Position numbers and translations under genes: made by a program. The notes under the pieces were generated by a model, which worked only from the letters and a program-made list of their open reading frames with translations, was not told the DNA's origin and made no database searches. From Escherichia coli (GTDB lineage Bacteria; Pseudomonadota; Gammaproteobacteria; Enterobacterales; Enterobacteriaceae): a DNA stretch of 64,000 nucleotides. Shown here one piece after another: positions 1 through 17,509 of the stretch. Position 1 is the stretch's first letter; the number at the start of each line of letters is the position of its first letter. The DNA lies in the NCBI RefSeq assembly GCF_011045215.1, contig NZ_CP049201.1. One strand, written 5' to 3'.

Positions 1-265
<265 letters not shown>

Positions 266-269
266 TCAG

Positions 270-545
270 CTATTTAAGATAGGCACGAACCAGTTCAATA
301 GTGTCGTCAACGGATTGGCTGACTTCGCGGCTGTAGCAGTCATTTCGGTCAAACGTTTCCCGGATATGGCTTTCAAGCACTTCTGCCATCAGCCCATTAG
401 CCGCGCCCCGAACGGCAGCGATCTGTTGGAGTATGGCACGGCATTCGGCATCACCCTCCAGCGACCGTTCCAGAGCATCAATCTGCCCTCGAATACGACG
501 AACTCGAGTAAGGACCTTTTTCTTCTCTTCCGGAGTACTGGGCAT
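270..545 (-). CDS. frmR: Formaldehyde-responsive transcriptional repressor FrmR (CsoR/RcnR family)
   Basis: ORF track 270..566; translation [52 protein letters not shown] matches FrmR. Start trimmed to the MPSTPEE methionine, giving the expected 91 aa. Confidence 0.9.
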
Positions 546-571
546 TTCGCACCTCATCATCTGCATGCAAT

Positions 572-620
572 ATACTATAGGGGGGTATGCTATATGTCAA
601 TGCATACCCCCCTATAGTAT
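572..620. promoter_or_regulatory. Perfect 19-bp inverted repeat (ATACTATAGGGGGGTATGC / GCATACCCCCCTATAGTAT) with 11-bp spacer, upstream of frmR; probable FrmR operator in the frmRAB promoter
   Basis: Read directly: 572..590 is the exact reverse complement of 602..620. It lies 27-75 bp upstream of the frmR start, with a G6/C6 tract typical of CsoR/RcnR-family operators. Confidence 0.7.
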
Positions 621-704
621 ATAACACTGGAGAATAATTGTTGTCCGAAGCCTAACCAGGCGAACGGTCCCTCAAGACAGATGGGGACCGTTTATGTGCT
701 ATTT

Positions 705-1763
705 TTATGCCGCATCCGCTAAAACAAACATCCCGTAAGGATGGATTTCGAGGTAATAGTGCTCACCAATATCGGGCTGTAAACGGGTGGCGTTTACTTG
801 TAATAAAATCTCCTGTCCATGCCACTCTACGGTCACTTCGTACTGCGGCCCCATGTAGGCGACATGGCGAATAACACAACGCTGACTCTCTTCGCCGTGA
901 TTGCTTAAGGTGATGGCTTCCGGGCGAACGCCGACGGTGCCGCTACCTTGCGCCGGGAAATGCGCCGCGCGCGGCAGGCGATAACCGTAGATATCGACAT
1001 ACTCTTCGCTAAAGTTCGCCGGGAACAGGTTGGCGTCGCCCATAAAACTTGCCATAAATCGGGAGGCTGGCTGACGATAGAGATCCTGCGGTGAGCCAAT
1101 CTGCATGATGTGACCTTTATTCATCACCAGCACAGTGTCGGACACCGCGAAAGCTTCACTTTGATCGTGAGTGACGTAGAGCGACGTGATATTAAACTGC
1201 TTTTGCAGCTCGCGGATCTTATCGCGCATACTGCGGCGCAGGTTGGCATCGAGGTTACTTAACGGCTCATCAAACAGCAGCACCTTTGGCTTGAGGATCA
1301 ACGCGCGGGCCAGTGCCACACGCTGTTGCTGACCACCGGAAATCTGATCGACATAGCGGTCCTCGAAGCCTTCCAGATCCACCATTGCCAGCGCCTCCTT
1401 CACCCGCTGTTTCACTTCGCTACGCGACACGCCAAGCATCTTCAGCCCGTAGCCAACGTTTTCACCCAGCGACATATGCGGGAACAGAGCGTATGACTGA
1501 AACACCATGCAGATATCGCGCTGTTGAATGGAACGATGCGTGACATCTTCGCCATCAATAAAAATTTGCCCTTCGCTCGGTTTTTCCAGCCCGGCAACCA
1601 GACGCAAAATGGTGGTTTTGCCACAGCCGGAAGGACCGAGCAGCGTCACCATTTGCCCTTGTGGAATGGTGAGATTGATATTGTCGATAACCGTATTACT
1701 GCCGAATCGTTTAGTGACGTTGCGCAGTTCAACAAAATTTTTCTGACTCATAGTGCGCTCCAT
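705..1763 (-). CDS. afuC: ABC transporter ATP-binding protein, AfuC/FbpC-like
   Basis: 352-aa ORF with Walker [13 protein letters not shown] signature [15 protein letters not shown], Walker B LLFDEPLS and a C-terminal TOBE-like extension. Start codon overlaps the upstream permease stop (TAATG). Confidence 0.85.
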
Positions 1764-3841
1764 TACGCCTGGTTTTTGGCTTTAGAACGGGAGATACGAG
1801 CTTCTCCGATCAGCCAGTCAAAGAGGAAAATAATCGCCAGCATCACCACGATCAGAATCGAACCATAGGCGATGGCTACGCCATATTCGCCGTCTTCAAC
1901 GCGGTTAAGAATGTAGGCGGTTGCCACGCGGGTGTCCGGCGTGACGAGAAAGACGATGGCGCTGACCGTCGTGATGGCCCGCACAAAGCTGTAGATCAGG
2001 GCCGAGAGAATGGCCGGACGCAGCAGCGGCAGTAAAATGTGGGTTATGGTTCGCAAGGAACCCGCGCGCAGGCTGAGTGAGGCTTCATCCAGCGATTTGT
2101 CGATCTGCCCCAGACCCGCAATCCCGGCGCGAATACCCACCGGAACGTTACGCATCACCATCGAGATAATCACAATTGCCGCCGTTCCGGTGAGATAAAC
2201 CGGAGCGCTGTTAAAGGCAAGAATATACGAAACGCCCGCCACCGTACCCGGTACGGCAAAGCACAGCATGGTGGTGAACTCGATGGTCTTTTTGCCTTTG
2301 AATTGTTGACGCACCACCACCCAGGCGATGAGCAGGCCAAAGATAGCGGTAATGGGAGCGGCAATCCCGGCGTAGAGCAGGGTATCCAGCAGTGAAGGCC
2401 ACGCGCCGTCGCTCATTCCCTGACCAAATAGCTTGATAAAGTTATCCAGCGTCAGGGTGTAGTCCACGCCCCAGTTCACCGTGAAGCTGCCGTAGAAAAT
2501 GCTGCCGTAGAGCAGGGCGTTAAAGGCAATCCATATCGCAAGTATGGCGACCACGCTCCACACCAGGGTGACCGGTAGCGGCTGGACGTCGCCACGGTAG
2601 GATTTGCCGGAAACCGTGACGTAAGAGCGTTTACCAATCCACATATACTGGATGCAGAACACCAGCAGCGAGAACAGCAGCAGGAAAGCGCCAAGGGTGC
2701 TGGCGGCCTGATAATCCAGCTGCGAGCCGGTAATATAGAAGTAAATTTGCGTCGCCAGTACGTCGAAGTTACCGCCAAGTACCAGCGGGTTACTGAAATC
2801 AGCCAGTGACTGTACCACGACGATTAAAAAGGCATTGGCGAGTGCGGGCTTTAGCAACGGCACAAACACGCCGTTAAAGGTTTGCCAGCGGCTGGCGCGC
2901 AGGGTGTAGGAGGCCTCTTCCAGCGAGGGATGAATGGTTTTAATGGCCCCGTCGAGGATCATAAATGCCATTGGCGTGAATGCCAGAACCTGTGCCAGCC
3001 AGATCCCGGTAAAACCGTACAGCCAGTTGGTGTTGGTCAGCCCAAACCACTCCACCATAAATTCCGTAACATAGCCGGAGCGCCCCATCATGAGCGTCAC
3101 GCCTAAGCCGACCACAAACGGTGGCGTAACGATGGGCAAAATGGAAAAGATGCGACCAATAATGGCGCTGCGTTTAGCGATGCGCGTGGTATAAATCGCC
3201 AGCACCAGGCCGAAGAAAGTACAGCCTATCCCCACCGCTATCGACAAGACGATAGAGTTGACGATCACCTGAACAATATGTGCCTGCGAGAGCACGGTCA
3301 TAAACGCCAGCGGGGCGAACTCTCCCGCGTCGTTGGTGAACATCGGGATAAAAATGGCGATGCTCGGCCAGACGATAAAAATGCCAATCAGCGCCACAAT
3401 CGCAATCAGTGAGCCGATCACGAAGCGGTCGCCGCCCAGCCATTCGAGGCGGGTTAAGGCCAGCGTCATAATCGCGCCTAGTTCAACAAACAGCACGATG
3501 GCGGCGTAGCCTAAACCGCGTCCAGCCACGGTGGCGCTGATGACGATAAACGCCATACAGAGCAATGCCCAGCTGGCATCAAAATAATGACGACTACGCT
3601 GTTCGCGTGTGACCTCACGAAACGGGCGAACCAGCAACAGACTCGGTAACAAATACCACAGCCAGCTGATATTAAAATGCGACCAGCCATAAGCCTCGAG
3701 GATCTCATCACTCGTGGACTCCAGCAGGCCATAATCGAGGCTCCAGCTCGGCAACAGTATAAATGCCAGCCAGCCCAGCAAAACCCAAAGGAAAATCGCA
3801 TCCCGCTTTTTCACGGGATGGAGTGCAAGTGTCTGTGACAT
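1763..3841 (-). CDS. afuB: ABC transporter permease, fused two-domain, AfuB/FbpB-like
   Basis: ORF track 1763..3892 (709 aa, highly hydrophobic, two permease halves). The 3892 start is a TTG; the ATG at 3841 (MSQTLALHP) is more plausible. Start is uncertain by 17 codons. Confidence 0.8.
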
Positions 3842-3909
3842 AGCAGTTCCGGTATGGTTGGCCGGGGCAGGCGTTTGTGCTGCACCCGGCAAATACGCCT
3901 AATGCGGGT

Positions 3910-4941
3910 TTATTTACCCATCTTCACTTCGCTGACCCATTTATTAATCAATGCCTTACGAACATCCGTGGAACCATATTTATCCATGTCGTAGTTGATT
4001 AATTTCAGGTCGTCGAGCTTCAGCGAATTTGGCGACGTTTCGGCGGTGGTATTGGTCAGGATCTGATAAGACTTCCCTTTCTTCCACGCCAGTTCCTGAG
4101 CTTCTTTTGATAATACCCAGTCCACAAACAGTTTGGCGTTGTCGAGGTTGCGCGCGCCTTTCAGAATGCTGACGCCGCCAATTTCGTAGCCCGTACCTTC
4201 ACACGGGGAAATCAACTCCAGCGGCGCGCCCTGTTCTTTTTCCAGCGAGTAGTCATGCAGGAAGCCAATACCAATCGCCGTTTCGCCACGGGCGGCGTTA
4301 CGTGCCGGGGCTATGCCTGATTTGGTGTACTGAGAGACGTTGGCGTTCAGTTGTTTTAGATAATCAAAGGCCTGATCTTCCCCCCACAGCTGCGCAAAAG
4401 TAGCCAGGGCGGTGTAGGCAGTACCGGAACTTTGCGGATCGGCAATTTGAATTTCGCCTTTATATTCCGGTTTGGTGAGATCTTTCCAGCACTTCGGCAC
4501 CGGCAGGTTTTTCTCTTTCAGACGATCGGTGTTTACGCCAAAACCGAGGATCCCCACATAAACGGCAGAGGACAGATTCCCTTTCACTTTTGCCGGATCG
4601 CGGAATTTCTCCATGATCTGCTCAAGGTTAGGGGATTTATACGCCTGTAGCAGGCCCATCTCGCCAGCCTGCGATTGCGGGTCTAAAGTGCCGCCGTACC
4701 AGACGTCAGCCTGGGGGTTTTTCTTTTCAGCATCGACTTTTGCCAGGGTGCTTCCGGAACCGTTGCGGATAAACGAGGTTTTTACATCATATTTCTCGCC
4801 AAACGCTTTGGTTTCGGCCTCACACATTTCATTGGTGGCGCTGCAATAGACCACCAGCCGGCCTTTTGCCTGCGCGGCACCCGTTAAAGTCGCCAGCGCA
4901 ACGGCAGAAGCAATCAGAGTAGAGGTAAAGGTCATTTTCAT
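3910..4941 (-). CDS. afuA: Periplasmic substrate-binding protein of ABC transporter, AfuA/FbpA-like
   Basis: ORF track 3910..5268 trimmed to MKMTFTSTLIASAVALATLTGAAQA (signal peptide), giving 343 aa. Its ATG overlaps the stop of the upstream UhpC-like gene (ATGA at 4938..4941). Confidence 0.85.
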   Translation of the reverse strand: MKMTFTSTLIASAVALATLTGAAQAKGRLVVYCSATNEMCEAETKAFGEKYDVKTSFIRNGSGSTLAKVDAEKKNPQADVWYGGTLDPQSQAGEMGLLQAYKSPNLEQIMEKFRDPAKVKGNLSSAVYVGILGFGVNTDRLKEKNLPVPKCWKDLTKPEYKGEIQIADPQSSGTAYTALATFAQLWGEDQAFDYLKQLNANVSQYTKSGIAPARNAARGETAIGIGFLHDYSLEKEQGAPLELISPCEGTGYEIGGVSILKGARNLDNAKLFVDWVLSKEAQELAWKKGKSYQILTNTTAETSPNSLKLDDLKLINYDMDKYGSTDVRKALINKWVSEVKMGK

Positions 4942-6254
4942 TGTTTTATCCTTCGAGCGTGAGTGGTGGTGATGCCCGCCATCAGTAACGGCATCAGCAG
5001 TAAACCCATAAGTACTGCGGCGACCGAGAGTAAACTGAACATTCCCGGCCAGCCGTAGCGTTCGATGACCAGCGACAGCGGCCAGCCTGCCAGCGCCGCG
5101 CCAAGGTAAGCGAACAGGCCGAGAAATCCGGTGATTGAACCCGCCGCAGCTTTGTGCCCACACTCCACCGCCGCAAGTCCAATCAGCATTTGTGGGCCAA
5201 AGACGAAAAAGCCCACGGTAAAAAAGCACACTGCCAGCAGAGCGTAGTGATGAACCGGTGCCAGCCACAGTGCGGCGACTGACACCATCAACCCCAACGT
5301 GAACAGCAAAATCATTGGCGCTCGTTGCCCGCTAAACAGCAAATCCGATCCCCATCCGGCAAATAACGCGCCGAGTAAGCCGCCCACTTCAAACAGCATT
5401 ACCGTGGCGTTGGCGCTGAGCAGGTTGACACCGTGGCTTTCCGTCAGCCAGATATTGCCCCAGTCGTTAAGCGCAATCCGGATCACATAAACCAGTACAT
5501 AAGAGACGCCCAGTAGCCAGATCAGCGGATTTTGCAGCATGGTGGTGCGCAACATTTGCCACAGCCCCATCGGCGGACTTTGTTGTTCCTGACGTAACTC
5601 CAGCGGATCGTGACGCCAGTGACCAACTGTCGGTAATCCCTCTTCCTGGGGCGTGCCTTTGAGTTGTAGCGTTAACCAGATCCCTAATGCCATGCTGATT
5701 ATCCCCGGTGTCAGCATCGCGGCCTGCCAGCCCCACCAGTGGGCGGCAAAGGCGCTAATCAGCGGAATAATCGCTCCGCCAATGTTGATCGACATATTCC
5801 AGCAGCCCCACCAGAAACCGCGCTCATTGCGTGAGTACCAGTGGGTCAGCAAGCGGGCACACGGTGGCCATCCCCAGCCCTGAAAAAAACCGTTCAGTGT
5901 CCAGACCACAAGCAGAAGCGTAAGTGATTCGCCAAAGGCAAACACCACGTTCAATAACCCGGTGGCGAACAAGCCGACGCCCATAAAACCGCGTTGTCCG
6001 TGGCTGTCATGCCACAGTCCGGCGGTAAATTTCGACAATCCGTAGCTGAGATAAAACAGCGAACCCAGCAGGCCAATGTCGCCTTTATCCAGTCCGAGGT
6101 CGGTTTGTAGCGCCGGAAGGACGTAATTCACGCTTTTTCGCGTCAGATAAAATGCGGCGTAGCCAATAATCATGCACATCAGCAATCGCGGACGTAATGT
6201 CCGGTAGCATTGATTAATTTCTCTCGCTGAACGCGCGTGCATGGTTGTCTCCAT
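4938..6254 (-). CDS. MFS sugar-phosphate sensor/transporter, UhpC-like
   Basis: 438-aa polytopic membrane protein with organophosphate:Pi antiporter family features (G-rich TM helices, 12 predicted TM segments). Resembles UhpC/UhpT but sits in a separate locus. Confidence 0.8.
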   Translation of the reverse strand: METTMHARSAREINQCYRTLRPRLLMCMIIGYAAFYLTRKSVNYVLPALQTDLGLDKGDIGLLGSLFYLSYGLSKFTAGLWHDSHGQRGFMGVGLFATGLLNVVFAFGESLTLLLVVWTLNGFFQGWGWPPCARLLTHWYSRNERGFWWGCWNMSINIGGAIIPLISAFAAHWWGWQAAMLTPGIISMALGIWLTLQLKGTPQEEGLPTVGHWRHDPLELRQEQQSPPMGLWQMLRTTMLQNPLIWLLGVSYVLVYVIRIALNDWGNIWLTESHGVNLLSANATVMLFEVGGLLGALFAGWGSDLLFSGQRAPMILLFTLGLMVSVAALWLAPVHHYALLAVCFFTVGFFVFGPQMLIGLAAVECGHKAAAGSITGFLGLFAYLGAALAGWPLSLVIERYGWPGMFSLLSVAAVLMGLLLMPLLMAGITTTHARRIKQ

Positions 6255-13819: not shown

Positions 13820-16819
<3,000 letters not shown>

Positions 16820-16820
16820 A

Positions 16821-17509
<689 letters not shown>

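Follow-up and report, generated by a model that had tools for sequence, protein, structure and literature searches.

Results

The frm locus and its surroundings

The 64-kb stretch of E. coli DNA analysed here (the window) opens inside the frmRAB operon, which runs on the minus strand. Its frmR gene (270–545, minus strand) encodes a 91-amino acid repressor of the CsoR/RcnR family (RefSeq WP_001141271.1), which matches Pfam family PF02583 with 82 bits and aligns over residues 1–91 with PDB entry 5LBM, ‘Transcriptional repressor FrmR’ (E = 4e-55). The translation carries Pro2 and Cys35, the pair cross-linked by formaldehyde, together with His60, and the gene is linked to frmA, as expected of the FrmR subgroup. 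frmA, the second gene of the operon, lies directly downstream and starts at 235; its 5′ part (1–235, minus strand), cut by the window edge, was identified from RefSeq and a Pfam ADH_N match as encoding S-(hydroxymethyl)glutathione dehydrogenase. The Shine-Dalgarno sequence of frmR, GAGGTG (550–555, minus strand), can be read directly from the DNA and is conserved in relatives. A mechanical list of open reading frames gives a longer, 98-amino acid version of frmR from 566. We rejected this as the gene, since the annotated and crystallised protein (RefSeq and PDB 5LBM) is the 91-amino acid form that starts at 545. Position 566 is the site of an A/G polymorphism among E. coli strains, reading TTGCATGC here and in K-12 and TTGCGTGC in most others sampled, and falls at or beside the inferred transcription start; it is the A allele that introduces an in-frame ATG upstream, and hence the spurious 98-amino acid frame.

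Positions 200–1000 are 100% identical to E. coli strain PapM-32-1, and positions 200–637 were found in 5415 of 5426 complete E. coli genomes. Synteny breaks just upstream of the frm promoter, with only 450 genomes running on from 637 into the fbpC-type ABC-transporter operon (705–5268) seen in the window. The upstream gene is thus fbpC here, co-directional with frmR and ending at 705, and yaiO in K-12-type strains; similarity between the two arrangements is weak and fades about 15–28 bp upstream of the palindrome described below. A 15-nt block next to the palindrome (623–637, minus strand; TTATTCTCCAGTGTT) is kept within Escherichia, and near-identity to most E. coli genomes stops at its far end, at 637. 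Between the fbpC stop (705) and the frm promoter there is also a perfect 9-bp G+C-rich hairpin (663–692; AACGGTCCC / GGGACCGTT, with a 12-nt loop), which is followed by a T-rich stretch on the plus strand and by no T-run on the minus strand, and which may mark the end of the fbpC transcript.

A 21-nt palindrome lies immediately upstream of frmR

Positions 572–590 read ATACTATAGGGGGGTATGC, and positions 602–620 are the exact reverse complement of this sequence. The two are separated by an 11-nt spacer, TATATGTCAAT (591–601). A preliminary description of the locus had reported this as a perfect 19-bp inverted repeat with an 11-bp spacer; the repeat is real and the spacer is as described, but the arms are longer than was claimed, as perfect pairing continues for 2 nt outward to give 21-nt arms (570–590 and 602–622), with 569 and 623 unpaired. 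The whole palindrome, which has no strand of its own, occupies 570–622. It was also placed correctly as immediately upstream of frmR: the start codon occupies 545–543 and the nearer arm ends at 570, leaving 25 bp between the palindrome and the start of the gene. Read 5′ to 3′, the minus strand across the region upstream of frmR is ...TGTT ATATACTATAGGGGGGTATGC ATTGACATATA GCATACCCCCCTATAGTATAT TGCATGCAGATGATGAGGTGCGAA ATG. Within the palindrome there are two uninterrupted tracts, G6 at 581–586 and C6 at 606–611, and the hexamer CTATAG occurs once per arm (575–580 and 612–617), as noted previously.

An inverted repeat of this length is not expected by chance. In 30 first-order Markov simulations of a 64-kb sequence, the longest arm was 9–12 nt, against 21 nt in the real sequence, and the analytic expectation for arms of at least 21 nt is about 3e-7 per window. 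Among perfect inverted repeats with a spacer of up to 20 nt, 570–622 is the longest in the window, and the runner-up has 13-nt arms. This second repeat (16839–16868; arms TAATGCCCGTCAA, 4-nt loop) sits between the end of a 992-amino acid open reading frame (13820–16798, plus strand) and a frame listed from 16841, whose listed start it overlaps; it could be a terminator hairpin, though one without a clear T-run after it.

The palindrome was found in 5411 of 5426 E. coli genomes, approximately once per genome (median one place, maximum two), and only its own two arms match within the window. This led us to reject a dispersed repeat of the REP/BIME, MITE or insertion sequence-end kind. The exact 53-mer was present in 3554 of 5135 matched records, and the K-12 MG1655 sequence is 98.1% identical to it; the perfect 21-nt palindrome is therefore the majority E. 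coli allele, of which K-12 carries a one-base variant. The minus-strand base at 589 is C here (GCATAC) and A in K-12 (GAATAC), with no compensating change in the other arm, so that the perfect arms measure 19 nt in K-12 as compared with 21 nt here.

Since single-stranded 570–622 folds into a 21-bp stem (−22.2 kcal/mol, z = −7.15) and the upstream gene, which ends at 705, is co-directional, we considered whether the repeat might act chiefly as a nucleic-acid structure, either as a cruciform or as an RNA hairpin acting as terminator or insulator against read-through from upstream (from fbpC, or from yaiO in K-12), with FrmR binding being secondary. Neither strand has a T-run after the stem, however, and a terminator scan makes no call, so we rejected a Rho-independent terminator or insulator. 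The idea of a structure kept by compensatory change was likewise rejected: the changes at 589 in K-12 and in the arm of E. albertii each disrupt inner pairs from one side, with no matching change on the other. The sequences of the two sites diverge in relatives, where a short stem, or none at all, is often found. An Rfam scan of 200–1000 returned only microRNA-precursor models at chance level, with 20–27 bits against thresholds of 73–90. Moreover, the inferred transcription start lies downstream of the repeat, in which case the frm mRNA would not contain it. We consider a primarily structural role extremely unlikely.

The palindrome contains the frm promoter

The promoter elements, which the preliminary description did not mention, lie inside the repeat. 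A perfect consensus −35 hexamer, TTGACA (595–600, minus strand), occupies the palindrome spacer, and a −10 hexamer, TAGTAT (572–577, minus strand), follows in the arm nearer frmR at a spacing of 17 nt. Together these match the consensus at 10 of 12 positions and constitute the sole σ70-like promoter found in 200–1000; the same promoter scan found no divergent promoter on the plus strand. TAGTAT overlaps a second −10-like hexamer, TATAGT (574–579), and both are held within TATAGTAT (572–579).

Counting 5–7 nt downstream of the −10 hexamer, we infer a transcription start at 565–567 (minus strand). This agrees with the placement of the repeat centre (596 in the window) at −29 of the start predicted by Denby et al. 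(2016; PMC5146963).

Each arm carries a type I FrmR site

Each arm contains one 17-bp ATAC-N9-GTAT unit built around one of the G6/C6 tracts. In the frame drawn in Fig. 6a of PMC5146963, by which we presume the exact bases contacted, the site farther from frmR (604–620, minus strand) reads ATAC-TATAGGGGG-GTAT on the coding strand, where it has a G6 tract, and stops 3 nt short of the −35 hexamer. The site nearer frmR (572–588, minus strand) reads ATAC-CCCCCTATA-GTAT on the coding strand, with a C6 tract, and its 3′ half forms the −10 region. These are the only two ATAC-N9-GTAT units in the 64-kb window, and a search of the window for further FrmR sites, using the 17-mer with up to three mismatches, matched the two arms only.

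A type I operator is defined in PMC5146963 by an uninterrupted G/C tract of 3–8 bp. Both tracts here are uninterrupted and fall within that range, ATAC and GTAT flank each of them, and the element lies within the promoter of an operon for a PF02583 repressor, with −35 and −10 hexamers inside it. It is also conserved upstream of orthologous regulator genes (at 65 of 80 loci, as described below). The preliminary reading of the repeat as an operator of the RcnR/CsoR type, recognisable by a G/C tract with AT-rich arms, is thus borne out both by PMC5146963 and by our comparison of these loci.

Both 17-bp cores, as well as TTGACA, are unchanged across nine aligned Escherichia sequences; the one exception is E. 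albertii, which has ATACTCCCC, the wider consensus among frmR homologues. Positions adjoining the cores vary.

Conservation of the sites upstream of frmR homologues

For a wider comparison we used 80 loci encoding FrmR relatives of 52–100% identity, ranging from Escherichia to Brucella, Lysobacter and Variovorax, a set in which Salmonella is not represented. The 10,080 nt immediately upstream of these genes hold 83 copies of ATAC-N9-GTAT (at 65 loci), whereas the remaining 321 kb hold five. To approach this without a prior motif, we scanned 79 distinct upstream regions for all frames made up of a 4-mer, a gap of 0–20 nt and the reverse-complement 4-mer. The top frame was again ATAC-N9-GTAT, found in 64 of the 79 regions with 5 background matches, followed by the nested TACT-N7-AGTA, the frame of RcnR, in 51 regions with 3 background matches. 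The comparison thus supports, independently and at the level of sequence, the published ATAC-N9-GTAT frame.

A counterpart of the nearer site was present at 65 of the 80 loci, with the consensus ATACTCCCC(T/C)ATAGTAT. A second site accompanied it at 18 loci, so that 47 of the 65 site-bearing loci have a single site. Loci with two sites belong to Escherichia, Pantoea, Edwardsiella, Enterobacter, Providencia, Aeromonas, Erwinia, Serratia, Morganella, Deefgea and one Paraburkholderia, and at most of the 18 the farther site mirrors the nearer one and lies 2–4 nt upstream of a TTGAC −35 element. The nearer site is thus widespread, and its mirrored partner is found mainly in Enterobacterales, Aeromonas and Deefgea.

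Measured from centre to centre, the tandem sites lie 32 bp apart in Escherichia and Deefgea; eight loci have 34 bp, and 33, 35 and 23 bp occur at single loci, implying that helical phasing is not strictly conserved. Most tandem-site relatives have TTGAC at the equivalent position, and the spacing of 32 bp in Escherichia, as against 34 bp in most of them, reflects 2 bp fewer between the −35 element and the nearer site. With this difference, another −10 hexamer would sit at 17-nt spacing: E. coli probably uses TAGTAT, and relatives with the 2 extra bp would use TATAGT.

The same comparison bears on the CTATAG sub-palindromes, which, according to the preliminary description, could allow alternative binding registers. 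CTATAG is indeed present in both arms, and TATAG is common in the nearer sites of relatives. Nevertheless, CTATAG itself was found in only 9 of 39 distinct sites, being replaced elsewhere by TGGGG, TAGAG, TGCAG, CATAG and others, and the unbiased frame scan picked out ATAC-N9-GTAT and TACT-N7-AGTA, not a frame centred on CTATAG. The occurrence of TATAGTAT in nearer sites is better explained by its role as the −10 region. Binding of FrmR in registers centred on CTATAG therefore appears very unlikely.

The set also contains FrmR homologues of 84–91% identity in unrelated genera and on a plasmid (loci L007–L018), with near-identical tandem operators in Edwardsiella anguillarum plasmid 1 (L008), an Enterobacter sp. 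(L010) and Morganella psychrotolerans (L018). In E. coli, a few copies of the frm region are plasmid-borne (7 places). The scattered homologues and their shared operators suggest that frmRA(B) and its operator move together as a cassette. In a separate group of seven loci from Lysobacter, Thermomonas and related Lysobacteraceae (L030, L034–L036, L053, L056 and L078), ATACTCCCCCCCACTA occurs near the start codon, and in all of these except L030 it runs straight into the ATG that starts the protein match. Transcripts of these genes may have no leader or only a very short one; alternatively, the sequence may be a variant operator, ATAC-N9-CTAT, that extends over the start codon.

Discussion

FrmR as the repressor acting at the palindrome

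Our analysis establishes the anatomy of the element, its overlap with the frm promoter and its conservation. Taken together with published work, these data strongly suggest that the palindrome serves the frmRAB promoter as its operator, composed of two mirror-image type I sites of the CsoR/RcnR family that are bound by FrmR when formaldehyde is absent and released when it is present, a reading to which we assign a probability of roughly 0.93. That the palindrome is an FrmR operator is already known for E. coli Pfrm. Denby et al. (2016, Sci Rep 6:38879, PMC5146963) drew the large inverted repeat of Pfrm as tandem type I FrmR sites, and measured by bio-layer interferometry a Kd of about 220 nM for FrmR on Pfrm DNA, compared with about 3600 nM on an unrelated control promoter. 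Formaldehyde treatment abolished this binding. The same study showed that FrmR represses in vitro transcription from Pfrm, that formaldehyde relieves the repression, and that sensing depends on a methylene bridge between Pro2 and Cys35. More recently, in 2024, E. coli ATACN9GTAT sites were placed upstream of the −35 element and in the spacer of constitutive promoters, and the resulting hybrids derived from J23100 and J23110 were completely repressed, in an FrmR-dependent manner, on overexpression of FrmR (PMC11127321). Published work thus shows that FrmR binds Pfrm and represses it both in vitro and in vivo, that formaldehyde releases FrmR, and that ATAC-N9-GTAT sites can be transferred to other promoters. 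A literature search, which did not extend to a Sort-Seq study of Pfrm, turned up neither footprinting nor mutagenesis of the individual E. coli sites. The proposal, made from the sequence, that this is the autoregulatory site of FrmR was accordingly correct and had already been established by the binding, repression and release described in PMC5146963, with which the 80-locus comparison agrees.

A likely course of regulation can be put together from these elements. When formaldehyde is absent, FrmR tetramers would occupy the sites, most likely one per site. Because the site at 604–620 abuts the −35 hexamer and that at 572–588 overlaps the −10 hexamer, bound FrmR would keep RNA polymerase off the core promoter, and, frmR being the first gene of the operon, this would amount to negative autoregulation. 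Formaldehyde would then bridge Pro2 of one subunit to Cys35 of another through a methylene group and so remodel the DNA-binding surface, and the remodelled FrmR would dissociate, allowing frmR, frmA and frmB to be transcribed.

Occupancy of the two sites

For E. coli FrmR, binding was measured on a PCR fragment and analysed with a 1:1 model (PMC5146963), and an occupancy of one tetramer per site in E. coli, along with the contribution of each site, is therefore something we extrapolate from Salmonella and from RcnR. In Salmonella, where the FrmR site is a C6 tract set between the halves of a T/A-rich inverted repeat (Osman 2015, 2016; PMC4528141, PMC5016687), two tetramers bind each DNA probe with a KDNA of about 1e-7 M, and mutation of one T/A-rich flank leads to loss of binding (PMC4528141, PMC5016687).

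A different arrangement has to be weighed at this point, in which repression depends on a higher-order complex instead of on two tetramers acting independently, either through a single tetramer bridging both sites with its two faces or through FrmR wrapping the flanking DNA, as proposed for RcnR. The length and symmetry of the layout, and the DNA upstream of it, would then be important in their own right. Bridging was raised by Denby et al. (PMC5146963) on account of the wide separation of the site centres, which by their count are 31 bp apart (32 by ours), compared with 19 bp for rcnR-A. In addition, a truncated PfrmR that retains both sites and lacks the upstream DNA was reported to lose repression (PMC11127321), from which it appears that the two sites alone may not suffice in the native context, and the 15-nt block at 623–637 is kept in Escherichia despite the differing neighbour gene. 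A complex of this kind, if it exists, would explain both the loss of repression in the truncated promoter and the near-perfect mirror symmetry of the sites in Escherichia. Several observations point the other way. Outside the enteric group a single site is the rule (47 of the 65 site-bearing loci), so that one site is enough in many lineages; the centre spacing varies (32, 33, 34, 35 and 23 bp), which speaks against a strict helical phase; the sites still repress when moved into unrelated promoters (PMC11127321); and two tetramers of equal affinity account for the Salmonella data (PMC4528141, PMC5016687). On balance we regard a higher-order complex as rather unlikely, and a role of the upstream DNA (623–637) in repression, suggested by the truncation result in PMC11127321, as possible.

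Since the element, its repressor, the signal chemistry and the use of the system in formaldehyde and methylglyoxal biosensors have all been published, the finding itself adds little. The additions made here are modest: the 21-nt majority allele, the confirmation of the frame at 80 loci together with the distribution of the sites, the non-fixed spacing and the two overlapping −10 registers in TATAGTAT. These points on allele, frame, spacing and −10 region could nonetheless be of help to designers of FrmR-controlled promoters.

Comparison with known operators

The closest known system is the Pfrm operator of E. coli K-12, which is the same element at the same locus: upstream of frmRAB, tandem ATAC-N9-GTAT sites together make up a large inverted repeat whose centre lies near −29. 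The K-12 FrmR protein is identical to that of the window (WP_001141271.1), and the two loci differ by the one base at 589 and by the upstream gene, yaiO in K-12 and fbpC here.

The operator-promoter of Salmonella frmRA resembles that of E. coli in having a C6 tract and a T/A-rich inverted repeat upstream of frmR, and in being bound less tightly in the presence of formaldehyde (PMC4528141, PMC5016687). Unlike the E. coli operator, it is described as one C6-tract site, carried on a 33-bp probe, yet it binds two tetramers. The Salmonella operon also lacks frmB, and Salmonella FrmR has clearly diverged from its E. coli counterpart (90 versus 186 bits for the two PDB entries).

In the account given in PMC5146963 of the work of Iwig and Chivers (2009), the RcnR operator, located between rcnR and rcnA, is likewise of type I, with a G6 tract, an AT-rich inverted repeat and the TACT-N7-AGTA frame. 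Going by that account, both operators comprise two sites with one tetramer per site, in the case of FrmR presumably, and both regulators belong to PF02583. The arrangement of the sites differs: those of RcnR (motif TACTGGGGGGNAGTA) have centres 19 bp apart and lie between divergent genes, as recounted there, whereas the FrmR sites are 32 bp apart, are mirror images of one another, and bracket the −35 element and overlap the −10 element of a single promoter. The signals differ as well, RcnR responding to Ni/Co and FrmR to formaldehyde.

Finally, the type II operators of CsoR, as represented in PMC5146963 by Streptomyces lividans CsoR (Tan et al. 2014), are recognised by the same repressor family and are likewise pseudo-palindromic and promoter-overlapping. 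The uninterrupted G6 and C6 tracts of the element described here place it with type I, not with type II.
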